From a virus: a stretch of DNA of 42,764 nucleotides. The notes beneath the pieces were generated by a model that was not told where the DNA came from, ran no database searches, and saw nothing but the letters and a program-made list of their open reading frames with translations. The stretch's first letter is position 1, and every line of letters begins with the position of its first letter. Position numbers and translations under genes: made by a program. The DNA lies in the IMG/VR virus record IMGVR_UViG_3300045988_053243. One strand, 5' to 3'. Of the stretch, positions 29,179 to 42,571 are shown one piece after another.

Positions 29179-30560
29179 TACACTGCCTCCTTAATCCATG
29201 CCGGGAACTTGAACTCGTCTTTTTTCAGATTGAGCACAAACTCCCGTCCTCGCACTGCTTCCGTCTGAAAGTCCTGCATGGCCTGCGCCATGCTTACGGT
29301 CATCTCCTGTTTCTGCTGTGCCTTGCGCTCAATCGCATCGAGGATCTCTTTCTCTCCCTCTCCGATCACGCGCCATACGTTTACTTCTTTATCCTGCCCG
29401 AAGCGGTAAAACCGCCTTACTGCCTGATAGTAACTCTCATAGCTGTAATCCAGTCCGCAGAACACTGCGTTTCGGCAATTCTGAAAATTCAAACCGAATC
29501 CGAAGATAGAAGGCTTGGAGATCAAAACGCGGAATTTCCCGTCGATGAAGTCCACCGCCGCACGTTCCTTTGCATCCGCCTTGTCGCTTCCTCGTATCTC
29601 CACCGCTTCCGGAATCGCCTTTTTGAGCTCGTCCGCTTCCTCGTTCTGAAAACACCAGATCACGAACTGTTCGTCTGAACCGCCGACGATCTCGGCGCAC
29701 CGCTGCACGCGCTCTGCAAGGCTCTTTTTCTTTGCCGCGTGAAAGCCCTTCACGGACAGATCCAGCTTTTCCGCCAGTCCCAGCAGCGTGTTCTTCTCCG
29801 TCTGCACAACCTCGTTTTTCTCGTGCAGCTCCGGCAGCGTGTATCCGTCTGCGCGGAATCCAATATCCTTCGGACTGGAAATGCAAACCGCCCAGCTTGC
29901 CACCCATCGCCAAAAATCCTGTTCAGCGTGGCCTTTCAGCCGATAGTGTCCGCTGTTTCTCTGGTCTGCCACAAACCAGCAGGAAAGCGCCTCGCTTGAA
30001 CGCATGATGCCGAGAAATTCCGCGTGGTTCAGCAGCTCCATCAGGTCGTTAGGTGCAGGCGTAGCCGTGCAGGCCAGTTTGAACGGCGTATCGCGGAACG
30101 CACCTATAATCTGCCGTTTGGTTTTTCCCATGTAGCTTTTCAGAATCGAGCTTTCGTCTAACACCACAGCGCCGAACTTCGACGTGTCGAACTTGTCCAG
30201 TTTTTCATAGTTGGTGATATTCACGCCCGGCGCAATATCCGCATCCATCTCCGCCAAAGTCACCGGCACGCCGAACTTCTCGCCCTCGCGCACGGTCTGC
30301 CGCGACACCGCCAGCGGCGCCAGAATCAACGTCGGCCTGCCGGTCTTTTGCGCGGTCTCCTGTGCCCATGCAAGCTGCTGTGCCGTCTTGCCAAGCCCGC
30401 AATCCTCGAATAGTGCCGCGCTCCCGGTCTTGCACGCCCAGTCCGTCACATATCTCTGCCACTCAAACAGATTTTCGTGCTTCTCCTGCATGTCAAATCC
30501 GCTTTTCGGTCTGCTTTTCAGCTTGCCCTTCAAAAAGTCCTCATACTTCATCCGTTTCAT
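29178..30560 (-). CDS. SNF2-family helicase
   Basis: A Walker A segment (DCGLGKT), a DExx box (VLDESS) and a C-terminal helicase region are present. The start is ATG 30560 or 30551, overlapping the RusA end. Confidence 0.85.
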   Translation of the reverse strand: MKRMKYEDFLKGKLKSRPKSGFDMQEKHENLFEWQRYVTDWACKTGSAALFEDCGLGKTAQQLAWAQETAQKTGRPTLILAPLAVSRQTVREGEKFGVPVTLAEMDADIAPGVNITNYEKLDKFDTSKFGAVVLDESSILKSYMGKTKRQIIGAFRDTPFKLACTATPAPNDLMELLNHAEFLGIMRSSEALSCWFVADQRNSGHYRLKGHAEQDFWRWVASWAVCISSPKDIGFRADGYTLPELHEKNEVVQTEKNTLLGLAEKLDLSVKGFHAAKKKSLAERVQRCAEIVGGSDEQFVIWCFQNEEADELKKAIPEAVEIRGSDKADAKERAAVDFIDGKFRVLISKPSIFGFGLNFQNCRNAVFCGLDYSYESYYQAVRRFYRFGQDKEVNVWRVIGEGEKEILDAIERKAQQKQEMTVSMAQAMQDFQTEAVRGREFVLNLKKDEFKFPAWIKEAV

Positions 30561-30927
30561 CCGCTCCCAAAATTTCAACCACAATCCTCGGATTCTTCGC
30601 ATCCACCTCAAAGTAATCTTCAAACCCTCGGATATTCTTCCAACCGTCGTTACTCAGATACCGCGCTTTCACCAGCGCGTCCTGAATAACCTTCCTGCCG
30701 AACGCGCAGATATTGTCCTTGTCCCGTCGCCGGTCCTTCTCATACCAGTGATAGACCATGTACACCGGCTCCTGAATTTCCGCGCCGCCCATCTGCCGCG
30801 CTGCATTCATCACAACGGCCTCGCACTGCTTTTTCAGCTTTGCGCCACACTGCCGGTTCCGCCTTTCCGCCTCGATCAACTCGTTCAGCCCGGGCAGCGT
30901 GCCCTTGATCGTAAACTTATAATTCAC
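30541..30927 (-). CDS. rusA: RusA-family Holliday junction resolvase
   Basis: 128 aa with the patterns LPGLNELI...RRRDKDN...K.IQDAL. Confidence 0.7.
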   Translation of the reverse strand: MNYKFTIKGTLPGLNELIEAERRNRQCGAKLKKQCEAVVMNAARQMGGAEIQEPVYMVYHWYEKDRRRDKDNICAFGRKVIQDALVKARYLSNDGWKNIRGFEDYFEVDAKNPRIVVEILGADETDEV

Positions 30928-31645
30928 CCGCTCGCCTCATTTTCCGCCTGATTTCTTCCTTCTGTGCTCGCCATGCAATCTCCCAGTCCGGCGTTTCCTC
31001 CGGCTCTACCTTTGCTTCCGTCTGCTTTGGCGCGTCCTTCACCCTGTCCCAGATAATGCCCTTCCAGTTGTTCGCCATGCTCAGCCGGATAACCTCGGCT
31101 ACTGCCGCCGCTCCGTGGCGCTTTACTCGGTTTTCTATCTCGGTCAGCAGAGACTTCAAGCCGACCGCCTTGTACGCCTCGCGCCGCTCCTGCTTGTAGG
31201 TGATCCAGTCGCGCACCGCAGAAAGCACAGGCTCAGAAAACCGCTCTGCAAGGTCAGGCTCTTTCGGTCTCTGCGTCTTTTTCGGCATCTCCGGTTTCGG
31301 CGGCTGCTTTGCAGGCGCTTCCTCCCGCTCGCCGCTCTGGAACTCGTCGTACCGGCATACCGTGATTACCGTATAATGCCGGTTGCTTTCCACCGTGATT
31401 TCTCCGGTTTTCTTGAGCTTTCCGAGTGCCGTGCGCACTTGCTTTACCGTTAGCCCGCTCTCGTCTGCAATCCCCTGCAAGCTCGTCACAAACGCGCCTC
31501 GGGGAATCTCGTTCCCCATGAACTGGCTTTCCTTGTAGTTTGCCCTCAGCAGGATATGCAGCCACAGCTTGCATGTGGGTACATCCTTGTACCACCCCCA
31601 TTCTGTGAGCTGTCGGTAAATCTGTATATGCCCGTTCGTCAGCAT
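30917..31645 (-). CDS. Replisome organizer / replication initiator-like protein (N-terminal wHTH)
   Basis: 242 aa. The N-terminal segment is YRQLTEWGWYKD...SLQGIADESGLTVKQVRTALGKLKKTGEI. The C-terminal domain is typical of phage replisome organizers. Confidence 0.65.
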   Translation of the reverse strand: MLTNGHIQIYRQLTEWGWYKDVPTCKLWLHILLRANYKESQFMGNEIPRGAFVTSLQGIADESGLTVKQVRTALGKLKKTGEITVESNRHYTVITVCRYDEFQSGEREEAPAKQPPKPEMPKKTQRPKEPDLAERFSEPVLSAVRDWITYKQERREAYKAVGLKSLLTEIENRVKRHGAAAVAEVIRLSMANNWKGIIWDRVKDAPKQTEAKVEPEETPDWEIAWRAQKEEIRRKMRRAGEL

Positions 31646-31658
31646 CCCCTATCACCTC

Positions 31659-32054
31659 TCAAAACGGGCAGTCGTTCGGGTCGCTCTCGTCCGACATGAT
31701 GAAGTCGCTTTCCTCTTCCTTCGGCTTGCCCTCGCTCTTGCCGCCGCAGAAGTCAATGCTTTCGCACTGCACCTCCCACGAGCGGCGCTTATTGCCGTTC
31801 TTGTCCTCCCAGTCGCGGCTTTCGAGCCTGCCGGAAACGATGCACATGTCGCCCTTGTGGAACCACGTATGCGCGTGCTCTGCCAGCTTGCTCCAGATGC
31901 AGATGTCAATGAAATCCGACGGGTACTTTCCGCCCGCGTCCTTGCGGCTTCTCTGCACCGCCAGCGTGCCTCCCGTAACCGCCGTGTTGCTCTGTGTGTA
32001 TCTCAGCTCCAAATCCTTGGTGAGCCGTCCCTGTAAGATGATCTTATTCAGCAT
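31659..32054 (-). CDS. ssb: Single-stranded DNA-binding protein
   Basis: The OB-fold N terminus reads MLNKIILQGRLTKDLELRYT, and the C-terminal tail is acidic and ends in DCPF. Confidence 0.85.
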   Translation of the reverse strand: MLNKIILQGRLTKDLELRYTQSNTAVTGGTLAVQRSRKDAGGKYPSDFIDICIWSKLAEHAHTWFHKGDMCIVSGRLESRDWEDKNGNKRRSWEVQCESIDFCGGKSEGKPKEEESDFIMSDESDPNDCPF

Positions 32055-32555: not shown

Positions 32556-33052
32556 CCGATCACCGTGCTTTCCGGCTCGGTCTCAATGCCCTGCTCCTTG
32601 CAGTCCTGTACTACCATGTCGATCAGCCGCCCCATTTGCAGCGTGTTGTAAGTGCTTGACCCGTAGTAGCACATCAGCAAACCGCCGTTGCAATCCTGAG
32701 TTACCCATCCGAGGCCCTGCTTTTCCCACAGGTTCGCGATCAAATCGCGCTGCTGCTCGTTGGCGTAGGGGACAAGTCTGTAATTGTCCCCTACTTCGGG
32801 AATGTACGAGCGGTACACCTCGTCGCGCTTCATGCCGAGCACCGCCGCCAGCTTTCCGAGCATCTGCCAGAGATAGGCGTTACAACGCCCTGAGCGCTTT
32901 TCATACTTGCGCTTCACCTCCGCGCAGTATAACTTTCCCTCCTTCATCTGCTCGCACTCTACGCGCGCCATAGGCGCGTTCTTGATGTGCAGGCAAAGCC
33001 AGTTGCCGCTCTCGTTGTGCACGACTCGCGCCTTGTCGAACTCATGCGTCAT
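32516..33052 (-). CDS. NinB/Orf-like recombination mediator
   Basis: KRSGRCNAYLWQMLGKLA parallels the RSxxQNxxLW motif of lambda NinB, and GSSTYNTLQMGRLIDMV parallels its GQSTSRM region. Confidence 0.6.
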   Translation of the reverse strand: MTHEFDKARVVHNESGNWLCLHIKNAPMARVECEQMKEGKLYCAEVKRKYEKRSGRCNAYLWQMLGKLAAVLGMKRDEVYRSYIPEVGDNYRLVPYANEQQRDLIANLWEKQGLGWVTQDCNGGLLMCYYGSSTYNTLQMGRLIDMVVQDCKEQGIETEPESTVIGWLSKWKPEERGV

Positions 33053-33777
33053 GCAAGCGCCTCCATCTGTTTAAGCCGGTCTTCGAGATCAAGCAGCGCC
33101 GCATTCATCTTTACAATGTCGCCTGCATCCTGCTTATACTTCTCGTTCCACAGCTGCGCCGCTGCGGTCTTGTCGCCCATGATCTTCACAAGCATCCGCT
33201 TTACCTCGTTCGCCTTAGCCTTCGCCGCCGCGATCTTCGGGTCCTCCTTTGGCTTTGCCTGTCCGCCCATGCGGAAGCGCTCGTTGCCTTTCTTGTCCAC
33301 GATGACCAAACCGCTAATCTTACGGCTGTCGGAATAGCTGATTTCCGACACTTTGAACGTTTGGTTGCAGCGCACGCGCTCGCCCTGACTTGCGTACTCT
33401 CCGTCTGCCAGTGTAATCCAGATAAACGGAGCTGTGTACAGTTCACGTCCGATACCCCAATTCGTACCAGCCCGCTTGAAACTGTCGCTTGCCTGCCCTT
33501 TTTCCTTCTCGGTGTTGCTCTCCGTGCCCACATCCTGCTTGGTAATCCACTGCTTCTTGTTGTCGTCCCATACGGACAGGTTGCAGTACAAGCGGCCGTC
33601 GATGATGGTGTGCTCGCGCTGCCAGTTCGCCGCGCCGTATACCTCGTCAAGGATTGCCATATCGCAGCGTGCGTCCTTGTACAGCAGCAGTGAGCACCCA
33701 ACGCCGTTTCGTGTCTGCTTCACCTGTGCTACGCGGCATTCAATTTCATCTGCCCGTAGCGTTCTGATTACGCTCAT
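33049..33777 (-). CDS. Rad52/Sak-type single-strand annealing protein
   Basis: EKEKGQASDSFKRAGTNWGIGRELY is the Rad52/22 signature region. Confidence 0.8.
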   Translation of the reverse strand: MSVIRTLRADEIECRVAQVKQTRNGVGCSLLLYKDARCDMAILDEVYGAANWQREHTIIDGRLYCNLSVWDDNKKQWITKQDVGTESNTEKEKGQASDSFKRAGTNWGIGRELYTAPFIWITLADGEYASQGERVRCNQTFKVSEISYSDSRKISGLVIVDKKGNERFRMGGQAKPKEDPKIAAAKAKANEVKRMLVKIMGDKTAAAQLWNEKYKQDAGDIVKMNAALLDLEDRLKQMEALA

Positions 33778-33780
33778 TTC

Positions 33781-34268
33781 TTAGTCCTCCTCTATCTCGT
33801 CTTCTGCTTCCCAGACGCGCTCCCGCACGTCCCGTAAAAAGTTCTTGATCTCATCCGGGAACAGCCCCTCGTACTCCTCGAGGAACGCCCCCATGCGGAT
33901 TTCCGCCTCGCGCATGTCGTACAGCCGGTTAATGCGCTCCTGATCGTCTCTCTCCGGCGGCTCGAGCGGCGGCTCAATGTTCAGCATCTGCATATCCTCC
34001 AAATCCTTGATGACCTCGTACAGCGTCGTTTGTCTTATGCCGTGTGCCCATATAGCCTTTCCGTGGCTGAAAACGCGCGTGTACGAGCCCTTTTCTATGC
34101 AGTAATCGTCGCTCACAAGGTCGCGGATTGTGATACTGACAGTGCCATGCGTGTCCGCGCGAAACTCAACCGTCGTCTCCCCCGGCGCGTCTGCACCGAG
34201 GCACAGGTAAAGCAGCTTAATCATGGTTTCCTTGTCCATGAGTTTTCTGCGTCTCTCTCGATCAAGCA
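33781..34268 (-). CDS. Hypothetical acidic protein
   Basis: ATG 34268 overlaps the upstream stop. The ORF-track N-terminal extension is not protein-like. Confidence 0.5.
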
Positions 34269-34525
34269 TCCTGCAACCCCTCCAGAACCTCCATGATTTC
34301 CTGCGTCGTGCAGTGTCTGCCCTCACCGAGCACAAGCCACGTGCCGTCAATATCCATCGTGTAGCCGCGGCATTTGCCGATTTCGATGCTGTTGCCGTTC
34401 CACTCGTGAATGAAAAAGCTCGCCTGTCCGCCGTTGTTGCACATCGGCGTGAACTCAAATGTCACGCCCTTGTGCTTTGCACTCAACACCAGATCAAGCA
34501 GCTTGTGCGCCGTCTCTCTGTCCAT
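34262..34525 (-). CDS. Hypothetical protein
   Basis: ATG 34525 lies 8 nt after ggagga. The ORF track starts at an upstream TTG. Confidence 0.55.
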   Translation of the reverse strand: MDRETAHKLLDLVLSAKHKGVTFEFTPMCNNGGQASFFIHEWNGNSIEIGKCRGYTMDIDGTWLVLGEGRHCTTQEIMEVLEGLQDA

Positions 34526-34616
34526 TGCTTTTTCCTCCAATCCGTGATATACTTGCCTTGAAACATTTTTCTTTGCCGCCGAAACGGGATTGCACTCCCG
34601 CTCGGCGGTTTTTCTT

Positions 34617-35414
34617 TTATTTGACTTCTGTTACCTTTCCACCGGACAGCGTGTAGAACACATCTTCCTTGATGGTTTCTCCGTCCACCTTCACAGCCTG
34701 CACACCCAGAATGTGCATTTCGCGGTCTCGCTCTGTAAGCACAAGCCAGCATCCACGCTTGCCGCGTGCCTTGCTTCCGTATCCGGTAACGATAGCAATG
34801 CTTTCCTTCCCTTCAACAGTCGCTGCGCTACAGTATCCGGTGTTCGTCGCTGCGCTACGGTAGCCGGTGTTCGTCGCTGCGCTATAGTAGCCGGTGTTCG
34901 TCGCTGCGCTACGGTATCCGGTGTTCGTCGCTGCGCTACGGTCGCCGGTGTTCGTGGCTGCGCTACCGTTGCCGGTGTTCGTCGCTGCGCTACAGTATCC
35001 GGTGTTCGTCGCTGCGCTACGGTCGCCGGTGTTCGTCGCTGCGCTACGGTCGCCGGTGTTCATGGCTGCGCTACAGTATCCGGTGTTCGTGGCTTTTGCA
35101 TTCTCGAAATCAGCTTTTTCGAGGATAAACTTCACGCCAGCCTTAACCAGCCCGGAAAGCCCGATCTCCGCGTCGGTTTTGATTTTCTTTCCGACGCGCT
35201 TGCTGTCGTCGCCCTTCTGCTCGTTTGCGTCGAGCTCGACCTCGCAGAACCGGCTATCTGCGGGATTGTAATACCGCAGCACATCGAGCGGAAACTCACA
35301 GGCGTGAAAGCCCTCCTCGCAGATTTCCGCCCGCTCGGTTTCGTACTCCTTGCCGACTTCGTACTGAAAGTCCTTGCAGCTCAAGTCCTTGTGGAATCCC
35401 TTGTAGCATTTCAT
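34617..35414 (-). CDS. Repeat protein: conserved N-terminal domain plus 10 nonapeptide repeats (DUF7666-like architecture)
   Basis: ATG 35414 overlaps the upstream stop (ATGA). The N terminus reads MKCYKGFHKDLSCKDFQYEVGKEYE...GFHACEFPLDVLRYY. Ten repeats of SAATNTG[YDN][CRYG] follow, then a C-terminal domain. Confidence 0.7.
   Translation of the reverse strand: MKCYKGFHKDLSCKDFQYEVGKEYETERAEICEEGFHACEFPLDVLRYYNPADSRFCEVELDANEQKGDDSKRVGKKIKTDAEIGLSGLVKAGVKFILEKADFENAKATNTGYCSAAMNTGDRSAATNTGDRSAATNTGYCSAATNTGNGSAATNTGDRSAATNTGYRSAATNTGYYSAATNTGYRSAATNTGYCSAATVEGKESIAIVTGYGSKARGKRGCWLVLTERDREMHILGVQAVKVDGETIKEDVFYTLSGGKVTEVK
34821..35090. repeat. 10 x 27-bp head-to-tail tandem repeat inside the coding sequence
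   Basis: The unit is cgctgcgctacagtatccggtgttcgt. Units 1 and 7, and units 5 and 8, are identical. Variation is confined to two codons per unit. Confidence 0.9.
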
Positions 35415-36043
35415 CCCTTGACTTCCTCCCACTCGAACCGGCCTTTGCCGGAATTTCTCCACTGTCCGATGCCGCGCAGCGCGCCGTAGTCCAGCCACTC
35501 GCGCACCGCTTTTTCGTGTGCGTCGTCCAAGCAGAGGATCGTCATTTCGCACGTCGTGCCCGCCGGGCATTCCTCGCTGCTGCTGAGTGCGGTTCTCTCG
35601 CCCTGCGCGGTCTGCGCACGCAGCGAACGCTGACAGATCGTGATTTCTCCCGGGGTATCGAGGCGAATGCGGCGCGGCTCGACGAAGATCAGGCCGTCGA
35701 TGACCTTTTTGTACGCCGTCAGCTTTCCGGACTCGTTGACCGCCTTGCGCTTCTTTCCGGTCTCCGGGTCCTTGCCGCTGAGACGTGCCAGCATTCCGCA
35801 GGCGTCCTTGAAGAACCCCTTGATCTGGTAGTCCCAGAGAAACGGTGTGCCGTCCTCGTCCTTAGGGAAGATGGTTGTGCCTCGCTCGACGATTGCGTCC
35901 TCGCCGAGTGCCGCGACTTCCTCCGGCAGTGTTGCCGCGTCCGGGCTCTTCGAGCCGATGAACCGGCTGTAGATTTCCGGGTCTGCGGTTGCCGTGCCGA
36001 GAATGCCCTCGGTGAATGTCACGTGAATTTTCAGCTTTTTCAT
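35411..36043 (-). CDS. Hypothetical early protein with RAMP-like motifs
   Basis: ATG 36043 follows aggagg. Motifs are KIHVTFTEGILG, YQIKGFFKDACGML and a C-terminal GIGQWRNSGKGRF (GhGx5GxGxF). Confidence 0.6.
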   Translation of the reverse strand: MKKLKIHVTFTEGILGTATADPEIYSRFIGSKSPDAATLPEEVAALGEDAIVERGTTIFPKDEDGTPFLWDYQIKGFFKDACGMLARLSGKDPETGKKRKAVNESGKLTAYKKVIDGLIFVEPRRIRLDTPGEITICQRSLRAQTAQGERTALSSSEECPAGTTCEMTILCLDDAHEKAVREWLDYGALRGIGQWRNSGKGRFEWEEVKG

Positions 36044-36082
36044 GATTTTTTTGTCCTCCTGTCGTTCCTCAAATTTTGCCGT

Positions 36083-36410
36083 CGCTATGCAACGCATGAC
36101 CTCGCCATGCCATAGCTACGCCAAGCAATGCTATGCCCTCGCTGAGCTGTGCAATGCTATGCCCTTGCTATGCACTGCTACGCCTTGCTCTGCCCTCGCT
36201 GAGCGGTGAAGTGCTATGCCTTGCCCTGGCTGTGCTGCTCAATGCTATGCATTGCCGTTGCTGTGCGCATCTGCGCTGTGCTATGCCCCTGCTATGCTAT
36301 GCCCTGCATTGCCGTTGCCGCGCGGTGAAATGCTTCGCTTCGCCGTTGCCTTGCAATGCTACGCCCTTGCTCTGCCGCGCTTTGCATTGCCCTTGCGCAG
36401 CTAATCTCGT
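36083..36410. repeat. Degenerate non-coding repeat field (GCTAYGC / TGCCCT motifs)
   Basis: About 12 copies of gctaYgc occur, for example at 36129, 36155, 36167, 36176, 36212, 36243, 36279, 36290, 36295 and 36357. A roughly 30-nt unit tgccctcgctgagcKgtgMaRtgctatgcc occurs at 36134 and 36191. attgccgttgc occurs twice. Confidence 0.75.
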
Positions 36411-36541
36411 TTTGGCAGTACGCCGATTTTCTTAGCGCACTCGCTCGGCTTCCTGCCGATCTTTTTCGAGTAAAGCGCCTCGCCGATCGTGCGTTTCTGC
36501 ATCTCGCGGATGACGTTCCACCGTTTTATTCCGTCGGTCAT
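36401..36541 (-). CDS. Hypothetical small basic protein (46 aa)
   Basis: Hand-translated as MTDGIKRWNVIREMQKRTIGEALYSKKIGRKPSECAKKIGVLPKRD, with RBS gaaagggg. Confidence 0.4.
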   Translation of the reverse strand: MTDGIKRWNVIREMQKRTIGEALYSKKIGRKPSECAKKIGVLPKRD

Positions 36542-36623
36542 TGCGTATCGCCCCTTTCCGCGCCATCAGACGTCGTGTGTCGCGTTTTCGCACCCCTCGG
36601 CATGTAATCTCATGCCTGAGTGC

Positions 36624-36785
36624 TTAGCGCCGCTCACAGCGCATCTGAGCGGCTTTCAGCAAAAGTGTCTTGCGCTTGTTCAGCTCGTCCTTGAGAACGC
36701 GGTGGTAAAAGCCCCACCCGAACAGCAGCACGAGCTGCGCGAAGATGCAGGCGAGTACGCCGAAAAGTACGGGGTTGATAGTCAT
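36624..36785 (-). CDS. Small membrane peptide (53 aa)
   Basis: aggagg RBS. The product is MTINPVLFGVLACIFAQLVLLFGWGFYHRVLKDELNKRKTLLLKAAQMRCERR. Confidence 0.55.
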   Translation of the reverse strand: MTINPVLFGVLACIFAQLVLLFGWGFYHRVLKDELNKRKTLLLKAAQMRCERR

Positions 36786-36862
36786 GGTTTTTTCCTCCTG
36801 TCGTGTGTGCGTCCTACTCTCTCGAACGTTAGTGAGAGATAGTTATTGCTTTATTCTTCTGT

Positions 36863-36934
36863 TGCCCTTTGTCTGCCCTCGGTTTGCCCTTGGACTGCCC
36901 TCGGTCTGCCCTTGGACTGCCCTCGGTCTGCCCT
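36863..36934. repeat. Seven TGCCCT motifs at exact 11-bp spacing
   Basis: tgccct starts at 36863, 36874, 36885, 36896, 36907, 36918 and 36929. The 22-bp unit ctgccctcggtctgcccttgga repeats about three times. Confidence 0.9.
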
Positions 36935-37170
36935 CAGACGTTCCCGACGCGCCGCTTTGCAATGTCGCTTGCAACGTCGCCAATGTAGTAGACAACCCGT
37001 CTTTCACCGGGAACTCTCGGTGCACCGATAACCTTCTTTGCGGCCTTTCTGTCGCTCAAACCGTACACTTTCATGCACTGTTCGAGCGTTAGCAGCACCG
37101 CACCGGGGTACTGCTGCAACAGGTCGTTTTTCACTTCCTGCCGCAGTTCCTTGTAGCTCCGTTCCTCCAT
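36934..37170 (-). CDS. Excisionase-family (MerR/AlpA-like winged HTH) small DNA-binding protein
   Basis: 78 aa. LLTLEQCMKVYGLSDRKAAKKVIGAPRVPGERRVVYYIGDVASDI fits the Xis-type HTH pattern. The RBS aaggaggg overlaps the first TGCCCT of the upstream array. Confidence 0.55.
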   Translation of the reverse strand: MEERSYKELRQEVKNDLLQQYPGAVLLTLEQCMKVYGLSDRKAAKKVIGAPRVPGERRVVYYIGDVASDIAKRRVGNV

Positions 37171-37174
37171 GTTC

Positions 37175-37261
37175 TGCCCTCCTTTCGGTTTGCCCTTTGT
37201 TTGCCCTTTGTTTGCCCTCGGTGTGCCCTTTGTTTGCCCTTGCGCTGCATTTCGATGCCCT
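37175..37261. repeat. TGCCCT array, five copies at exact 11-bp spacing plus two flanking copies
   Basis: tgccct starts at 37191, 37202, 37213, 37224 and 37235, plus 37175 and 37256. Degenerate gcc/ttgc repeats continue to about 37320. Confidence 0.9.
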
Positions 37262-37314
37262 GCCCAGCTATGCCGTTGCAGTGTCCTGCTTCGCGTTGCC
37301 TTTGCCTCGCCTTG

Positions 37315-37413
37315 CTAATGCCGCTCCATATGCGTAACGGCGTAGAGCACAAGGAGCACGATTTCTGCGCCCAGTGTGGCAAGCACGCCCGCCACAAACG
37401 GGTTAATATACAT
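37315..37413 (-). CDS. Tiny membrane peptide (32 aa)
   Basis: ggaggtg RBS followed by MYINPFVAGVLATLGAEIVLLVLYAVTHMERH. Confidence 0.45.
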   Translation of the reverse strand: MYINPFVAGVLATLGAEIVLLVLYAVTHMERH

Positions 37414-37483
37414 CGGTATCACCTCCGCTTGTTCGCCCCTTTCCGACCGTGGTATAATAGCCGGGAAAGGAGCATTCGGCACA

Positions 37484-37642
37484 TCATCGGGTTTCTCTTC
37501 GCTTGGGAAACGCTCGTCTGATTTCACCGTCTATATACACGTCGTAGACCTTGCAAAGCAGTGTGCAAACACCGAATCCCAAAGCGAAACCAGCAAGCGC
37601 CGTGCCAAAATCGCCCGATGAACAACATCTTTTTTCATTCAT
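37484..37642 (-). CDS. Small membrane peptide (52 aa)
   Basis: Hand-translated as MNEKRCCSSGDFGTALAGFALGFGVCTLLCKVYDVYIDGEIRRAFPKRRETR, with RBS ggggtgag. Confidence 0.4.
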   Translation of the reverse strand: MNEKRCCSSGDFGTALAGFALGFGVCTLLCKVYDVYIDGEIRRAFPKRRETR

Positions 37643-37676
37643 TGCTCTCACCCCATTTCAGAAAGGATTGTTTTCA

Positions 37677-37922
37677 ATGTTTCATCCAACTAACCCGCAA
37701 AACAAAGCGCAAACACAAGCTGAATTACGCGATTGGGAAATGAAACGCGCCCATCGCGCTAAGCTCGAACGGCGAGAAAATTTCCATTATTGGATAACTA
37801 CCATCCTCGCTGTGCTTGCCTTTATCCTGTCTGTCGCATCGTTGTCATGGCAGGTATACAAAGACCTGCACCCTACCGCTTGTACCACTTGTGCATCAGC
37901 ACAATCAGCACAGCCAGAATAA
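37677..37922 (+). CDS. Small single-TM protein (81 aa), opposite strand
   Basis: aaagga RBS plus ATG 37677. The product begins MFHPTNPQNKAQTQAELRDWEMKRAHRAKLERRENFHYWITTILAVLAFILSVASLSW. Its 3' end overlaps the 37873-37962 minus ORF. Confidence 0.4.
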   Translation: MFHPTNPQNKAQTQAELRDWEMKRAHRAKLERRENFHYWITTILAVLAFILSVASLSWQVYKDLHPTACTTCASAQSAQPE

Positions 37923-37962
37923 CCATTGTTGCGATGTTAAGCGTCATCAGCACTGGATCCAT
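37873..37962 (-). CDS. Tiny membrane peptide (29 aa)
   Basis: gaggggg RBS followed by MDPVLMTLNIATMVILAVLIVLMHKWYKR, directly after the HTH gene stop. Confidence 0.4.
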   Translation of the reverse strand: MDPVLMTLNIATMVILAVLIVLMHKWYKR

Positions 37963-37975
37963 TGCTATCACCCCC

Positions 37976-38185
37976 TCACGCGCTTTCGTTGTGGTCGAAA
38001 CCGATAAGATAGTCAACAGAGCATCCGAACAGGTTTGCAAGCGCCACAAGCCGCGCACACGGTACGTCCGTGCGTCCGTCTTGCCAGTTCGAGTAGGTTT
38101 TCGTGCTCACGCCGATCTGCTTAACGAGTTCTTCCTTCGTCCAGCCTTTACGGCCTCTCTCTGCTTCAATGTTTGGAAACTTCAT
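37976..38185 (-). CDS. XRE-family HTH regulator (Cro-like, second switch)
   Basis: 69 aa. The segment WTKEELVKQIGVSTKTYSNWQDG is an HTH_3 pattern. Confidence 0.8.
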   Translation of the reverse strand: MKFPNIEAERGRKGWTKEELVKQIGVSTKTYSNWQDGRTDVPCARLVALANLFGCSVDYLIGFDHNESA

Positions 38186-38203
38186 TTTATTTTTTCACCT
38201 CCT

Positions 38204-38335
38204 ATATTCGCGCTCTGCGAATATCATGGTTATAGTATATTCTCAATTCGCGAATATGTCAAGCGCTTTCAGAAAAATAATTTACGCATTTTGCGAATAT
38301 TCTTATTGACAGTGCGTATATAGCAGCTATATAAT
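38204..38335. promoter_or_regulatory. Divergent promoters with three GCGAATAT-containing operators
   Basis: O1 is atattcgc-gctct-gcgaatat (38204-38224). O2 is the palindrome attcgcgaat (38246-38257). O3 is ttgcgaatattc (38291-38302). The minus promoter is TTGACA (38262-38257), 17 bp containing O2, then TATACT (38239-38234). The plus promoter is TTGACA (38306-38311), 18 bp, then TATAAT (38330-38335). Confidence 0.65.
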
Positions 38336-38356
38336 ATAGGCAAGCAGAAAGGAGTG

Positions 38357-38755
38357 ATGAAATTGATTTTCGACCGCATAAAAGAACTGCGAGAACAGAC
38401 CGGAATGAGCGCACGAAAGTTCGCGGAAATCATCGGCATAAAGTACACAACGTACTACGGCTACGAAAGCGGAACCAGAGAGCCGGGATCGCAAACTGTA
38501 ACAAAAATATGCAATTATTTCGGCTGTACAGCTGATTACTTGCTCGGTCTCTCAGATGACCCCAAGGGTTATTTTGACGAAAAAGAAACCTCCCCCGCCC
38601 CGGCGAAAGCCGAAGCAGAGGAGGTTGAGAAGTGGCTGACTGATTTACTTGTCGAGCGCGGTTACATCCGCCCTGGCGAGGACATCAGCGACCGAGACGC
38701 CAAGTTTCTGATCCGCTGGATCGGCCTGCTTGACGCATGGTTTGAGAAGGAGTGA
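38357..38755 (+). CDS. XRE-family HTH regulator (repressor-like, second switch)
   Basis: FDRIKELREQTGMSARKFAEIIGIKYTTYYGYESG is an HTH_3 pattern. The start is ATG 38357, or TTG 38363, which has better RBS spacing. Confidence 0.75.
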   Translation: MKLIFDRIKELREQTGMSARKFAEIIGIKYTTYYGYESGTREPGSQTVTKICNYFGCTADYLLGLSDDPKGYFDEKETSPAPAKAEAEEVEKWLTDLLVERGYIRPGEDISDRDAKFLIRWIGLLDAWFEKE

Positions 38756-38977
38756 AAGCGCCGCTTTCACTTCCTCTCGATGTTGACAGCGTGCGATGTA
38801 TTCGGATACCCGTGCGATGTTCGTCATGATTGTACCTCCTGTCATTCTATGGTTTTATGATACGCCTGCACGTCGGGCGTATCAACCAAAACCGTCCGCA
38901 AGTTTCGACTATATTGTATCGAACGCCTGTTCGTTACGCAAGCCTTTGCGTAAAGGCATGCAGAAAATGTGTCGGAT

Positions 38978-39250
38978 TTATGGGACTTGATCGGAAACGC
39001 CATCGTCGGCGAGCTTTTTGAAAAACCGCTCCATGGTTTTCATAAGGTCGTCCGTGCTGGTGTCACAAGTGCCGGTATAAAAGCCGTTGCCTTCGGCGCT
39101 GACAAGCGCTTCTTCGGCAAGGCGGATGAGCTTACCGCGCTGATGTTTGGTAAGCGGAAGCGTGTTGACGTAGTGATAGAGTAATTCAATTCTCTTGCGC
39201 GTATCTTCATCGCGTTTAACGTAGATTGCGCAGCATTCATCGTGCCTCAT
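38978..39250 (-). CDS. Hypothetical protein
   Basis: ATG 39250 follows aaggag. 90 aa. Confidence 0.55.
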   Translation of the reverse strand: MRHDECCAIYVKRDEDTRKRIELLYHYVNTLPLTKHQRGKLIRLAEEALVSAEGNGFYTGTCDTSTDDLMKTMERFFKKLADDGVSDQVP

Positions 39251-39312
39251 GGTTTTGCTCCTTTCGAGTGTATGGCGCATGGGGGTCACGTTTCGTTACT
39301 CCCCCCATGCTT

Positions 39313-39342
39313 GCAGTTTCGGACAAAAATGTCCGTAACTGC
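39313..39342. other. 12-bp near-perfect palindromic hairpin (operator or processing/termination signal)
   Basis: gcagtt-t-cggaca/aaaa/tgtccg-t-aactgc. No T run follows on either strand. Confidence 0.35.
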
Positions 39343-39383
39343 AACTCGGTCAAAATTGTCCAGGTTCGGTAATTGAGTTAGCC

Positions 39384-40172
39384 CTACATGTCTTCCGGCA
39401 TATCCGTGCCGAGGATTTTGTTGAAGAAATATACCTGTCCCTTGCCGGTAATCTTCGGCGTGCGGCTGATGGTGGTGTGACCGTCCGAGTGGGTAATCAC
39501 AGTTTCCTTGATCTCGAACAGTCCGAGTTCCATACTGCGCTGGGTAGGCATATTGTAATCACTGCCATTGCGCTTGACAAGGTAACCGTTTTCACGCAGC
39601 CATGCGAAGAAGCGCTTGCCGCCCATATCCGCGCCGTTCTGACGGAGAATCTTCGCAAAGTCGAAAATCAGGATGGACGTTTTGGACACGGTAACGCCCT
39701 TTGCAAAATGGACGAGCGGTGCGTTGAGTTTCGCCTGTTCAGTAGCGCACGAAATCAGCTTGTCCTTTTCCTCAATGGTTTTCTGAGCTACAAGCAGGGC
39801 TTTTGCCATCAGTTCTTCGGGGCTGAGAGTTTCCTGACCGGTAATGTAGCCGCCGTTCTTGCGGATGCTGGGAATAACGTCGTGCGTAATCCAACGTTTG
39901 AACGCTTTGGCCTCTGGTTTACGAGAGCCAAGGACGAGGGTGTACAGGCCGGGTTCGTTAACCACAGTCTTATTGGGGTTGCCCGGAATACCGTCGGTTA
40001 AAACTACGGTATTCTTCTCGTCGTCATCCAGACGAGCAACCGCATCGCGGCTGTTAATGATGTCCAGCGCCTTGCAAACGTCCGCCGCTACGAACCACGG
40101 CTCGTTCTCAATGTTTAGCGTGCGAACCTCGCCAAATTCAGGGTTAGTAAATGCAATGATTTTGTTATCCAT
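39384..40172 (-). CDS. Antirepressor (Bro-N plus KilAC/ANT domains)
   Basis: The N terminus FTNPEFGEVRTLNIENEPWFVAADVCKALD is Bro-N-like. The C-terminal half is KilAC-like. Confidence 0.8.
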   Translation of the reverse strand: MDNKIIAFTNPEFGEVRTLNIENEPWFVAADVCKALDIINSRDAVARLDDDEKNTVVLTDGIPGNPNKTVVNEPGLYTLVLGSRKPEAKAFKRWITHDVIPSIRKNGGYITGQETLSPEELMAKALLVAQKTIEEKDKLISCATEQAKLNAPLVHFAKGVTVSKTSILIFDFAKILRQNGADMGGKRFFAWLRENGYLVKRNGSDYNMPTQRSMELGLFEIKETVITHSDGHTTISRTPKITGKGQVYFFNKILGTDMPEDM

Positions 40173-40174
40173 AC

Positions 40175-40375
40175 TTAATCCTCCATTTCGATGATGTCAG
40201 TTACCTTTGCACGCAGCGCGTGAGCAATGCGGCCTACGGTTTTGGGCGAACAATTCCCGCGCGCAATCGCGTTACACAAAGACTGGCGGGAGATTCCGCT
40301 AATTACGGCGAACTCGTTCTTCGTAAGCTGGTTTTCCGCAAGCAGAATGTCAATTTTGCTTTTGCTAAGTTTCAT
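40175..40375 (-). CDS. Cro-like XRE-family HTH regulator
   Basis: ATG 40375 follows gaggtg. The HTH segment is LTKNEFAVISGISRQSLCNAIARGN. Confidence 0.75.
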   Translation of the reverse strand: MKLSKSKIDILLAENQLTKNEFAVISGISRQSLCNAIARGNCSPKTVGRIAHALRAKVTDIIEMED

Positions 40376-40422
40376 TTGTGGCACCTCGTTTCTATTTCTA
40401 ATTTTCGTATGTTGCAAGTATG

Positions 40423-40451
40423 ATTATATATTAAATATAGAATCGTGTCAA
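40423..40451 (-). promoter_or_regulatory. Consensus early promoter of the Cro-like operon
   Basis: On the minus strand: TTGACA (40451-40446), a 17-bp spacer, then TATAAT (40428-40423). Inverted aatatag motifs (40434-40440 and 40462-40469) flank the -35. Confidence 0.65.
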
Positions 40452-40486
40452 TGAAATTATACTATATTTCGTAAAGTGGTGAGTAA

Positions 40487-40978
40487 ATGACCGTAGGTGA
40501 ACGGATTAAACAGCAAGCAGAAAAACGAGGAATATCCCTAAAAGAGTTGTCGAAACGCGCGGATATTCCGTACACAACGCTGTATTCTATGGTGAGAAGT
40601 GGTGCGGTTCGTGCATCCCATGACAAGTTAGCGGCTATCGCCAATGCCCTTGAAATCAACGTGAACGAACTAAGCCCTGATGCTTCAATCCGTGTAAACA
40701 GTGCTCCGGAAATGGTGGAGCTACAGCAGAAAGTAGCAGCTGGTCAGGCAACCGAGCAGGAAAAGCAGGCATGGCTCGAAGCCAATCTAAAAGGCTTAGA
40801 GCGTATGCAACACTCAATCGAATTCATGCTGCATGATCTCGCGCAGTATGATGAGACACAAAAAATCGCCCGTCAATCTCGGCTGACGACAATATTCAAT
40901 CAGCTCACCGAGGACGGGCAGGAAAAAGCATTGGATTTCCTTGAAATCATGCTGGGAAATCCGGATTATAAGAAATAA
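40487..40978 (+). CDS. CI-like XRE-family repressor (no S24 peptidase domain seen)
   Basis: VGERIKQQAEKRGISLKELSKRADIPYTTLYSMVRSG is an HTH_3 pattern. The gene is divergent from the Cro-like gene and sits on the integrase side. Confidence 0.8.
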   Translation: MTVGERIKQQAEKRGISLKELSKRADIPYTTLYSMVRSGAVRASHDKLAAIANALEINVNELSPDASIRVNSAPEMVELQQKVAAGQATEQEKQAWLEANLKGLERMQHSIEFMLHDLAQYDETQKIARQSRLTTIFNQLTEDGQEKALDFLEIMLGNPDYKK

Positions 40979-41415: not shown

Positions 41416-41449
41416 GAGGGTAGTACATTTGAGGAACGTTACTACCCTC
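41416..41449 (+). terminator. Second stem-loop just upstream of int
   Basis: gagggtagta/14-nt loop/tactaccctc followed by ttattat. It could insulate or regulate int. Confidence 0.4.
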
Positions 41450-41482
41450 TTATTATACGACAAAATAGGAGGAAATTCAACA

Positions 41483-42571
41483 ATGAAAAAGAATGCCGAC
41501 GGTTATTACCGTGAGACCTTCACGTTCAAGGGCAGACGGTATGACGTAACCGCCAAGACAGAACGCGAGCTCTGGCGGAAAGTCGACGAGAAAAAGCGCC
41601 GCCTTGAAGAAGGTGTAGACGTGGTGAACGAGAACACGAGCGTCGATAAGTGGTTCGCGGAATACATCGAGACTTACAAAAAGCCGAAAGTGCAGCCGCG
41701 CACCTGTTCTGATCTGCAAGGCTATCTCAAGAACTACATAGCGCCGGAAATCGGCTCTATGCGACTGAAGAATGTTAGAACCGTGCACTTGCAGCGCATC
41801 ATGAACAGCGTTGCAGGCCGTTCCGCGTCCATGGCGTGCAAGCTGCGCGATCTTATCAAAGGCGCGTTCCGGCAGGCGCGTATTGACCGTGTAATCGTTT
41901 ACGACCCCTCAGAGGCACTGGTTATGCCGGAGACCAAAAACGGCACGCACAGGGCGATTACAGCCGACGAGCGCAAGCATATCCTGCACGTTGCCGAGAC
42001 GCATCGCGCCGGGCTCTGGGTGCTGTTCATGCTGTACACCGGTGCACGCCCGGACGAGACCAGGAAAGCGACATGGGACGATGTTCGCAGAAACGAACAA
42101 AAGATCATCCTGCACTCGTCCAAGACGGATTTCGGCGACAGAGCCGTTCCCCTGCATCCGGCGCTTGCTCCTCTGCTGACCGGCGGCAAAGGTTACATCT
42201 TCACACAGCCGACCACCGGCAAGCCGCACACAAAGCATTCCATGCGCCGCATGTGGGAGAGTTTCAAACGCGCCGTAGACATCGACATGGGAGCACACAC
42301 TTTCAAAGGCGGTGTTATCCCGGAGACTTCAAAGGTAGCCGTGGACCTCACGCCCTACTGCTTGCGTCACACCTACGCAACCGACCTGCAAACGGCAGGC
42401 GTTCCGATCAACGTTGCAAAGGACCTGCTGGGGCACAAGGAGATTTCGATGACAGCGCGTGTTTACACCCACCTGTCTGAGGAGGCGTTCGCCGCAGCGG
42501 TAGACAAGGTGGTTGCACTGGACGCCGCGCGTCGGAGCGGCAAACTGGCGGAAATTAAGTCCCACACTTAG
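41483..42571 (+). CDS. int: Tyrosine integrase
   Basis: ATG 41483 follows aggagg. The catalytic-domain motifs are TGARPDE, HSMRRMW, CLRHTYAT and LLGHKEISMTARVYTH. Confidence 0.9.
   Translation: MKKNADGYYRETFTFKGRRYDVTAKTERELWRKVDEKKRRLEEGVDVVNENTSVDKWFAEYIETYKKPKVQPRTCSDLQGYLKNYIAPEIGSMRLKNVRTVHLQRIMNSVAGRSASMACKLRDLIKGAFRQARIDRVIVYDPSEALVMPETKNGTHRAITADERKHILHVAETHRAGLWVLFMLYTGARPDETRKATWDDVRRNEQKIILHSSKTDFGDRAVPLHPALAPLLTGGKGYIFTQPTTGKPHTKHSMRRMWESFKRAVDIDMGAHTFKGGVIPETSKVAVDLTPYCLRHTYATDLQTAGVPINVAKDLLGHKEISMTARVYTHLSEEAFAAAVDKVVALDAARRSGKLAEIKSHT

Follow-up and report, generated by a model that had tools for sequence, protein, structure and literature searches.

Two clusters of short direct repeats bracket a small gene for a predicted DNA-binding protein in a 42,764-nucleotide stretch of viral DNA (IMG/VR record IMGVR_UViG_3300045988_053243; hereafter, the window). 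The original prediction offered three readings of this locus: the replication origin of the phage, a centromere-like or silencing site, or a nucleoprotein switch bound by the embedded winged-helix-turn-helix (wHTH) protein. The question is which of these the repeats represent and which protein reads them. Comparison with other phages strongly supports the origin, since the repeats are homologous to and collinear with cassettes that lie inside organizer genes; the wHTH protein is probably the wrong reader.

Phased repeats around a small winged-helix gene

Every TGCCCT start reported earlier was found to be exact on the plus strand. In the cluster downstream of the small gene (array A), the copies start at 36863, 36874, 36885, 36896, 36907, 36918, and 36929; in the upstream cluster (array B), they start at 37175, 37191, 37202, 37213, 37224, 37235, and 37256. 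Since genes in this region are located on the minus strand, we read the motif as AGGGCA. The elements of this part of the locus are as follows:

36814–36842, minus strand: hairpin with the conserved loop TCACTAACGTTC and a co-varying stem
36843–36862, minus strand: A-rich, purine-biased stretch, a candidate DNA-unwinding element (coding strand acagaagaataaagcaataa)
36863–36934, minus strand: array A, the downstream iteron cluster; seven AGGGCA-N5 units spaced by exactly 11 bp and a super-period of 22 bp
36934–37170, minus strand: 78-aa winged-helix gene between the iteron clusters (open reading frame; AF2 pLDDT 84.8)
37175–37261, minus strand: array B, the upstream iteron cluster; seven AGGGCA cores, five of them at exactly 11 bp (37191–37240)
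37262–37320, minus strand: GCA/GGCA-rich, degenerate sequence that adjoins array B on its upstream side (self-identity at lags 5 and 11 in 37170–37330)

To estimate the excess of the motif, a check that the original prediction had proposed, we compared its count to dinucleotide-preserving shuffles (n = 100). The window contains 45 copies of TGCCCT compared to 19.2 ± 4.2 in the shuffles, none of which reached 45 (0 of 100), and 21 of the 45 copies are located within 36000–37300. Tandem Repeats Finder detected 6.6 copies with a period of 11 at 36863–36935 (22-bp super-period, 94% matches) and 4.9 copies with the same period at 37188–37241. The iterons thus total 7 + 7 AGGGCA units, 12 of which are spaced by exactly 11 bp. 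Array B scored 14 to 16.6 bits with the position weight matrix, and a scan with such a matrix revealed no further iteron clusters in the window.

The arrays are non-coding in the window and closely adjoin the 78-aa gene: the first unit of array A overlaps its TGA stop codon, and its ribosome-binding site (aaaggAGGGCAgaacATG) overlaps the last repeat of array B. The cassette is located ~1 kb downstream of the early promoter and is therefore transcribed early. No promoter was found within the arrays; strong promoters are present only at a divergent pair at 38234–38335.

Cassettes inside organizer genes and the organizer recognition helix

An exact-pattern search of IMG/VR for (AGGGCA-N5)x3-AGGGCA yielded 111 loci. 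At 64 of these, the array lies within an open reading frame whose first ~110 aa match the N-terminal domain of the replisome organizer encoded in the window (phmmer E values of 1e-30 to 5e-4):

30917–31645, minus strand: replisome organizer (DnaD-like/O-like initiator; PHROG phrog_2514/270/678), the putative reader of the iterons

The intragenic arrays are positioned at about residues 110 to 160, just past the DNA-binding domain at the N terminus, and are followed by the A-rich sequence acaactaaagaatataaagaa. In these phages the repeats are translated as part of the protein linker. The assertion that an 11-nt period cannot be a coding repeat is therefore not generally valid: in 64 other phages, the 11-bp repeats belong to an open reading frame, and all three frames of them are translated. 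A search with the ATAACA-N5 pattern mostly returned AT-rich noise, L198 and L205 being the only informative loci. The comparison drew on 80 of more than 558 relatives in IMG/VR.

The organizer of the window matches phrog_2514 (DnaD-like helicase loader, 1e-24), phrog_270, and phrog_678/345/391 (O-like), and its gene adjoins those for a helicase (29178–30623) and SSB (31659–32054). The distance between the organizer gene and the arrays, given earlier as 5 kb, is 5.2 kb. The gene itself contains neither internal iterons nor a period-11 array; the linker reads SGEREEAPAKQPPKPE, and no notable repeats were found in or near the gene. Internal repeats were likewise detected in 0 of 23 checkable organizers of the family and were absent from 32 related contigs.

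The locus L221 encodes a 65%-identical wHTH protein with no arrays beside its gene. Nine iterons of the ATAACA type, separated by the same spacers, lie within its organizer gene; behind them come an A-rich stretch and then a hairpin with the same conserved loop. This intragenic cassette is collinear with the cassette that follows the wHTH gene in the window. The hairpin of the window is a hybrid between two copies and has a single mismatch. Stem covariation is 0.584 compared to 0.223 ± 0.046 in shuffles, and 8 of the 10 pairs changed on both sides. The conserved-loop hairpin is present in only 3 of 54 other origins and is thus not general to the organizer family. We also considered that it could be an intrinsic terminator and rejected this, as its loop measures 11 to 12 nt, its stem is AT-rich, and the sense strand lacks a U-tract. 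The A-rich stretch is ~20 bp long in the window as opposed to 60 to 100 bp of polypurine or AT-rich sequence in most relatives, and this shortness speaks against an origin; the A+T content of the best 40-bp segment here is 67.5% (top 0.9% of the window).

The sequence of the iteron core follows that of the organizer recognition helix, which in the window is G64-L-T-V-K68-Q-V-R71. Among AGGGCA phages whose locus includes an organizer, 19 of 19 have a GLT[VL]KQVR helix, and the ATAACA phages (four of four) have a GLSVQQVR helix; Gln goes together with ATAACA in L221 as well. In the pair L048 (AGGGCA) and L068 (ATAACA), only 7 of 100 residues of the N-terminal domain differ, two of them in the recognition helix. 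The pairings in 48 further organizers with internal arrays were Lys with GGCA, Arg with GACA, Gln or Met with AACA, Asn with CACA, and Asp with CCCA, a rule that is a correlation among metagenomic sequences, many of them mutually related.

Homology and collinearity with the intragenic cassettes, the lack of iterons in the organizer gene of the window, and the co-variation of core and helix residue argue that both 11-bp arrays, the A-rich stretch, and the hairpin most likely constitute an iteron-type phage ori located 5.2 kb upstream of the initiator gene and split around the 78-aa gene. We infer that the organizer would bind the arrays, that the A-rich stretch would be unwound, and that replication would initiate there. 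The N-terminal winged-helix domain of the organizer would contact the AGGGCA-N5 units, which come once in every helical turn and face the same side of the DNA, and the resulting nucleoprotein complex would open the adjacent A-rich stretch. The C-terminal domain would then recruit the phage helicase, SSB, and the replisome of the host, in the way described for lambda O/ori and SPP1 G38P/oriL. In most relatives of this organizer, the cassette occupies the organizer linker after the DNA-binding domain, from where it would have been lost in this lineage. Most likely, therefore, the element is of a known type in an unusual place: an ori outside the initiator gene that brackets a small, unrelated DNA-binding gene.

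The embedded gene, other readings of the arrays, and the GCA field

The 78-aa protein is predicted to fold as helix, β-strand, HTH, wing, and helix. It matches PrtN, excisionase, and AlpA structures in BFVD (E values of 2e-3 to 0.05, probability 1.0), and weak PDB structure matches include BldC (E about 1) and RacA. No match was found in Pfam (including HTH_17), PHROG, NCBIfam, or PDB sequences or, with tblastn, in GenBank phages. Its designation as an excisionase-type wHTH thus finds support at the level of the predicted fold only. The possibility that it is a diverged organizer N-terminal domain was rejected (hhalign probability of 0.8%).

Excisionase/MerR-like proteins bind cooperatively to direct repeats spaced by about one helical turn; they can serve as transcription regulators and repress genes downstream (PMC12266134). 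The arrays could be operators on which the 78-aa protein polymerises head-to-tail, as do Xis, Cox, Apl, BldC, and D29 Gp36, with autoregulation and a block or timing of early transcription into the recombination and replication genes as the outcome; in a softer version, the protein would be a second reader that modulates origin firing. The predicted excisionase/MerR-like fold and the overlap of the repeats with the ribosome-binding site and stop codon of the gene are consistent with this, as is the co-variation of the protein with the motif, which the original prediction had proposed to look for among relatives. Of eight fixed non-synonymous differences that separate AGGGCA from ATAACA phages, five are in the HTH (codons 32, 33, 39, 41, and 42), nucleotide identity between the groups drops to 58% in the HTH patch compared to 77 to 91% elsewhere, and neighbouring small genes do not track the motif. 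However, physical linkage of less than 20 bp can account for this co-variation. Arrays are found beside homologs of at least 77% identity only, while homologs of 62 to 69% identity directly follow a cro-like gene and have none, including one in L034, a phage with a different replication module. In L221, which has ATAACA iterons, the wHTH helix is GYRRRES and not the GFRDKR of the ATAACA group. Moreover, the same arrays occur inside organizer genes in 64 + 48 other phages with no 78-aa-like protein nearby. Operators of the 78-aa protein are therefore an unlikely explanation. Since its homologs occur without arrays, this protein is probably not the main reader; it is probably an early regulator or excisionase. 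Because its HTH also co-varies with the motif, a co-evolving second iteron reader that licenses or limits origin firing is conceivable, as a smaller possibility.

The likeness to lambda Xis, P2 Cox, 186 Apl, BldC, and D29 Gp36 thus lies in the predicted fold and in the binding of phased direct repeats by the known proteins; the differences are that homologs of the 78-aa protein usually lack adjacent repeats, that the repeats here belong to the site family of another protein, and that no repeat cluster is located near the integrase gene of the window. Excisionase sites at attP were rejected as well, with no motif cluster near the integrase gene and no tRNA found by ARAGORN.

Two further readings both appear highly improbable. 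One is a partition site similar to a centromere, as in R1 parC/ParR or TubR/tubC; the other is an element that acts in early mRNA rather than in DNA and serves for protein binding or ribosome standby. The parC of R1 contains ten 11-bp iterons, and the window is similar in that 11-bp direct repeats, in two clusters, enclose a small gene for a DNA-binding protein. However, the analogy to R1 drawn originally is not supported. As had been noted from the outset, no motor is seen: neither a family search (~26.9–42.6 kb) nor the list of open reading frames (~19–42.8 kb) revealed ParM, ParA, or TubZ. The bracketed protein is a winged helix rather than a ribbon-helix-helix protein, a tyrosine integrase gene marks the phage as integrative, and the arrays are homologous to intragenic origin iterons. 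Action in mRNA is suggested by the location of all copies on the transcribed strand, by the overlap of the last upstream copy with the Shine-Dalgarno sequence, and by the predicted largely unstructured state of the purine-rich RNA. Against it, there was no Rfam match in the region (scan of 33000–40000, E ≤ 1), the fold z-score is only −1.97, and exact 11-bp phasing corresponds to one turn of the DNA helix. Phages of the ATAACA group have the ribosome-binding site of the 78-aa gene outside any repeat, and elsewhere the repeats are translated as a protein linker.

A third repeat field is located on the other side of the hairpin, in front of another gene:

35411–36043, minus strand: gene for a 210-aa protein whose predicted fold is Cas7/Csm3-like (RAMP); the GCA field is directly upstream
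36083–36410, minus strand: third field, 328 bp, 41 GCA triplets at 5- to 6-nt spacing; leader of the next gene

The mixture of GCTAYGC and TGCCCT motifs originally described is present here (12 of the 18 GCTAYGC copies in the window and 6 TGCCCT copies), but the regularity is different: the field is a GCA lattice and not a set of degenerate arrays. The triplets are on the coding strand, with self-identity peaks at lags 5, 10, 16, 21, 26, 31, and 36 and a mean period of ~5.2. Weak iterons were rejected because GCA is kept where the iterons switched to AACA, in phages whose organizer is of the Gln type and whose ori cassette is of the ATAACA type (recognised in this comparison by the A-rich stretch and hairpins at the locus edge). 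The third field is thus a separate element, outside the ori. The 210-aa protein is one of at least 7,800 members of a family that lacks annotation, and 300 to 570 nt of non-coding triplets 5 to 6 nt apart precede its gene in the closest clade and sporadically elsewhere; blastn of 35400–38800 against phages gave weak matches to this gene only. Cas7 filaments hold RNA with a short fixed period, and therefore the leader could be coated by the 210-aa protein. We suggest only tentatively, with considerable doubt, that the field may provide the nucleic-acid scaffold for a Cas7-like protein that the phage encodes and that stands alone. If so, coating of the leader could serve autoregulation, or the leader could form a CRISPR-independent ribonucleoprotein filament.

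Known origins and the meaning of a probably displaced cassette

The closest parallels are found among phage and plasmid origins. As in lambda ori/O, direct repeats to be bound by the N-terminal domain of the initiator are followed by a candidate A+T-rich, purine-biased stretch and, beyond it, by an inverted repeat; changes in the iterons go together with changes in the DNA-binding domain of the initiator, transcription from the early promoter passes through the origin, and the organizer of the window matches PHROG "replication initiation O-like" families. In contrast to lambda, which has four 19-bp units, the unit of the window is 11 bp, is repeated 12 to 14 times, and has no internal dyad; lambdoid ori is intragenic, whereas here it lies 5.2 kb upstream of the initiator gene and is interrupted by another gene. 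It is unusual for an origin to flank an unrelated gene.

SPP1 gp38 binds direct repeats together with an AT-rich unwinding element, within gene 38 (oriL) as well as at a distance of 13 kb (oriR) (PMC6316719). SPP1 and the window share a replisome-organizer initiator of a Firmicutes phage, repeats with a candidate AT-rich element, and a site far from the organizer gene (oriR); SPP1 has kept the intragenic oriL, whereas the window has the distant copy only. Origins of this type usually, but not necessarily, reside in the gene of their initiator, as oriR illustrates. In P1 incC-repA-incA and F ori2-repE-incC, too, iteron clusters flank a small gene, and the upstream cluster overlaps expression signals. 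The bracketed gene of these replicons, however, is that of the initiator, while the 78-aa protein has neither a Rep fold nor a Rep-family match and is dissimilar to the organizer (hhalign 0.8%), the likely reader being encoded elsewhere. The hairpin loop and 11-bp repeats also resemble the arrangement of the pMV158 nic/bind loci. A rolling-circle origin was dropped because no HUH Rep was seen among the genes examined (~19–42.8 kb) and the 210-aa protein lacks an HUH motif.

These results locate a probable origin for a common family of temperate phages from the human gut, which has Agathobaculum prophages among its relatives, and suggest that an origin cassette can leave the initiator gene and settle elsewhere as a unit. 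In more than 100 metagenomic phages, one residue of the organizer helix predicts two iteron bases (Lys-GG, Arg-GA, Gln/Met-AA, Asn-CA, and Asp-CC), a set that includes L048 and L068 as a near-isogenic natural swap. The rule offers a directly testable case of protein-DNA recognition, would make origin finding simple and replication-specificity groups predictable in uncultured phages, and in usefulness it may outweigh the origin itself.

Position and setting of the arrays

The original prediction had described TGCCCT repeats phased at 11 bp on both sides of a small helix-turn-helix (HTH) gene, and 14 of its 14 TGCCCT coordinates were exact. When TGCCCT was counted across the window, 45 copies were found, exceeding the 19.2 ± 4.2 obtained in shuffles; 21 of them lie within 36000–37300. 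Tandem Repeats Finder reported a period of 11 in two places, 36863–36935 (6.6 copies; a 22-bp super-period has 94% matches) and 37188–37241 (4.9 copies). Since the minus strand is the coding strand around the arrays, the iteron unit on the coding strand is AGGGCA-N5. A 78–amino acid (aa) open reading frame, 36934–37170 (−), separates the two arrays. Its TGA falls inside the first unit of the downstream array, and the Shine-Dalgarno sequence of the gene falls inside the last unit of the upstream array.

Features of the region
37175–37261: array B, second iteron cluster, on the opposite side of the 78-aa gene
36863–36934: array A, iterons after the 78-aa gene
36843–36862: A-rich stretch, next part of the cassette after array A
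36814–36842: hairpin, last part of the cassette in the window
39384–40172 (−), 40175–40978, 41429–42571 (+): anti-repressor, HTH pair, integrase region

Strong σ70-type promoters were found nearby only as a divergent pair at 38234–38335, between cI-like and cro-like genes, so that early lytic transcription reaches the arrays after ~1 kb. Past the cI/cro pair, an anti-repressor of the Ant type (phrog_130, 2e-85) is followed by another divergent pair of HTH genes and by a tyrosine integrase gene; these genes are the “second switch” alluded to earlier. At 37315–37413 (−), just upstream of array B, and at 36624–36785 (−), just downstream of the hairpin, are genes for two small proteins that are both predicted to be membrane proteins and resemble each other at the N terminus (MYINPFVAGVLATLG... 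and MTINPVLFGVLACIF...), so that paralogous small genes flank the putative origin region.

Organizer genes with internal arrays

An exact pattern of four AGGGCA at 11-bp spacing was found in 111 IMG/VR loci, only 18 of which carry the 78-aa gene. In 64 of the pattern loci without it, the array lies inside an open reading frame whose first ~110 residues match the N-terminal domain of the window’s replisome organizer (phmmer E values of 1e-30 to 5e-4). The latter, encoded at 30917–31645 (−), matches PHROG families of DnaD-like helicase loaders and O-like replication initiators. The intragenic array occupies residues ~110 to 160, directly after the organizer N-domain; next comes an A-rich run (acaactaaagaatataaagaa...), whose translation is a Lys/Glu-rich linker. 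The lambda origin lies inside gene O, the same layout as in the 64 loci. SPP1 oriL, located inside gene 38 (PMC6316719), is arranged likewise. In two phages with unrelated organizers, L198 (~8190–8400) and L205 (reverse strand, around 1080–1409), ATAACA-like iterons break up the coding sequence of the N-domain, parting the recognition helix from the wing, and recur after the N-domain; two iteron clusters parted by coding DNA are therefore not unique to the window.

The organizer gene of the window contains no repeats, and ...RYDEFQ runs straight into a Pro/Lys/Glu linker. An internal period-11 array was present in 0 of 23 checkable organizers of the family and 0 of 32 related IMG/VR contigs. 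Locus L221 encodes a 65%-identical winged-helix protein (P0068) with no arrays next to its gene. Its organizer N-domain is closely similar to that of the window, and the cassette lies right after ...KYDEYQ. Nine ATAACA/ATCAACA/GTAACA units at 11 bp, with gaccg/caccg/aaccg as spacers, lead into an A-rich run of purines; a hairpin, CTCTCTTTCT-tcacctacggttc-AGAAAGAGAG, comes next, at about 9650–9690 and still within the organizer gene. In the alignment, this cassette is collinear, unit for unit, with its counterpart downstream of the 78-aa gene in L024, L001, and the window.

The hairpin occurs once or twice in each array-bearing locus, 85 to 205 bp past array A. The loop, TC(A/C)CTA(A)CG(T/G)TC, is conserved, and the stems exist in at least six different versions, each fully complementary. 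When ten variants were aligned, pairing held in 81% of cells, and both partners had changed in 8 of the 10 pairs; covariation scored 0.584 versus 0.223 ± 0.046 for shuffled alignments (0 of 500 reach 0.584), and slid registers give 0.08 to 0.23. The window’s copy combines two L003 copies (3337 and 3379), with one stem mismatch, and looks like a deletion hybrid of L003-type copies. Since just 3 of the 54 other organizer origins contain it, the hairpin is a lineage-specific part of the putative origin, for which unwinding, priming, or an RNA function are candidate roles.

Among phages of the 78-aa gene family whose organizer lies inside the compared locus, the organizer recognition helix is GLT[VL]KQVR in 19 of 19 AGGGCA phages and GLSVQQVR in 4 of 4 ATAACA phages, as well as in L221, whose iterons are also ATAACA. 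L048, L058, and L060 combine AGGGCA arrays and Lys with organizers otherwise of the ATAACA-phage type, so the correlation survives mosaicism. Between the L048 and L068 organizers, 7 of 100 N-domain residues are different, and two of these 7 lie in the recognition helix; in this near-isogenic pair, the K/Q swap goes with the AGGGCA/ATAACA swap. Internal 11-bp arrays were detected in 48 of 80 further organizer loci, and in these 48 organizers the fifth residue X of G-L-[ST]-x-X-x-x-R predicts the iteron core.

Recognition-helix residue X and iteron core
Lys: (G/T)GGCA
Arg: (G/C)GACA
Gln or Met: (C/A)TAACA or CCAACA
Asn: A(T/C)CACA
Asp: TTCCCA

This one-residue code holds in over 100 organizer genes that carry 11-bp iterons internally (L073–L183, L222–L301); the window’s residue is K68. 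The unrelated organizers of L198 and L205 have Met-Gln or Gln-Gln at the helix position. Lys and Arg usually prefer G, and Gln usually prefers A. Given the code and its fit to these side-chain/base preferences, we infer that the organizer N-domain reads the arrays.

The GCA field upstream of the 210-aa gene

The stretch at 36083–36410, earlier called a degenerate repeat field, does hold 12 GCTAYGC and 6 TGCCCT motifs; on the coding strand, it is a lattice of 41 GCA triplets spaced 5 to 6 nt. Weak iterons were ruled out as its explanation because the lattice persists in phages that combine a Gln-type organizer, an ATAACA-type ori cassette, and the 210-aa gene. The field lies directly upstream of that gene, 35411–36043 (−), in nearly every family locus that has it, and AGGGCA phages without the gene (L006, L016, and L018) lack the field; as an exception, L007 has a comparable field and no detected 210-aa gene. 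Of 72 distinct IMG/VR loci, 18 have a lag-5 field ahead of the gene, namely, 16 of 17 distinct loci with ≥79% identity (the copy on the short contig L321 received no score of its own) and two others. L302 and L304 likewise have the field ahead of the gene; a large clade with about 68% identity does not. These distributions are suggestive of a linkage between field and gene that would not be obligatory.

Pfam, PHROG, and NCBIfam gave no match to the 210-aa protein, which has at least 7874 homologs. Its model (pLDDT 75.9, pTM 0.71) matches Cas7-family RAMP proteins (type VII Cas7, Csm3, Cmr4, and Cas7-11), with 143 Foldseek hits in the PDB at E ≤ 1e-3 (best 1e-7, TM 0.45 to 0.53). The scanned part of the window showed no further cas genes. 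A 27-bp tandem repeat at 34819–35094 (10.2 copies; 81-bp super-unit at 93% matches) lies inside gene 34617–35570 (−) and encodes 9-aa SAATNTGYR-like repeats of a DUF7666/phrog_4433 protein of unknown function.

The 78-aa protein and the reader of the arrays

Searches of Pfam, PHROG, NCBIfam, and PDB sequences yielded no match to the 78-aa protein, whose family is very small, with 22 clusters out of 1.84 billion representatives. Its AlphaFold2 model (pLDDT 84.8) comprises an N-terminal helix, β strand, HTH, wing, β strand, and helix. The excisionase-type assignment made originally agrees with the best BFVD matches (PrtN, excisionases, AlpA, and MerR-like phage proteins; E values of 2e-3 to 0.05, probability 1.0) but less with the PDB, where structure matches are weak (BldC and RacA, E about 1), or with the family searches. 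A cro-like gene directly upstream is the constant partner in all homologs, and there is no profile similarity to the organizer N-domain. Taking fold, partner, and this dissimilarity together, the most reasonable reading is that the protein would be an early regulator or excisionase. Gene calls often stretch the gene upstream through array B, giving 91- to 113-aa versions (P0001, P0002, P0006, and P0007; L001 2932–3237); array B is then translated as a RKGRPRANKGQTKG-like sequence resembling the linker encoded by intragenic iterons in organizers.

Homologs with 77 to 96% identity occur in 30 IMG/VR loci, and 11-bp arrays lie on both sides in 30 of 30 (1 to 7 copies upstream, 4 to 8 downstream). 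ATAACA/ATCAACA/CTAACA replaces AGGGCA in six of these (77 to 81% identity) and in the P0064 loci, with period 11 and similar spacers kept. Between the two motif groups, HTH residues 32, 33, 39, 41, and 42 differ, and five of eight fixed nonsynonymous changes sit in the HTH, a concentration that linkage leaves unexplained. On first inspection, these differences favor the embedded protein as reader of the arrays. Excisionase/MerR-like proteins (D29 Gp36, BldC, Xis, and Apl) do coat direct repeats (PMC12266134), and that the 78-aa protein would be a second reader of the iterons is retained as an unlikely rival. However, the co-variation that the original prediction proposed to look for holds in the close family and breaks down outside it, where no comparable residue-motif rule is seen: L221 pairs ATAACA iterons with a GYRRRES helix in its winged-helix protein, and in L034, where arrays are lacking and the replication module is a different one, the helix is GFTDKY. 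Homologs with 62 to 69% identity (L031–L036; Agathobaculum and other prophages L040–L042) likewise have no arrays and directly follow the cro-like gene. Since the gene lies <20 bp from both arrays, close-family co-variation is most simply explained by physical linkage. The proposal that the embedded protein reads the arrays is thus improbable; the iteron core tracks the organizer helix residue instead.

A centromere, also considered originally, is not supported: the examined genes (about 19–42.8 kb) showed no partition motor, the phage is integrative, and the 78-aa protein is not ribbon-helix-helix. An RNA element is unlikely as well. The origin option fared better, given the collinearity with the intragenic L221 cassette and the correlation of the iteron core with the organizer helix. 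Judged from these sequence comparisons, the arrays are most probably an iteron-type phage origin that is read by the replisome organizer, lies outside the initiator gene, and is split. An element of a known kind, newly arranged, is their best explanation; the origin would then lie 5.2 kb from the initiator gene and around an unrelated small gene.
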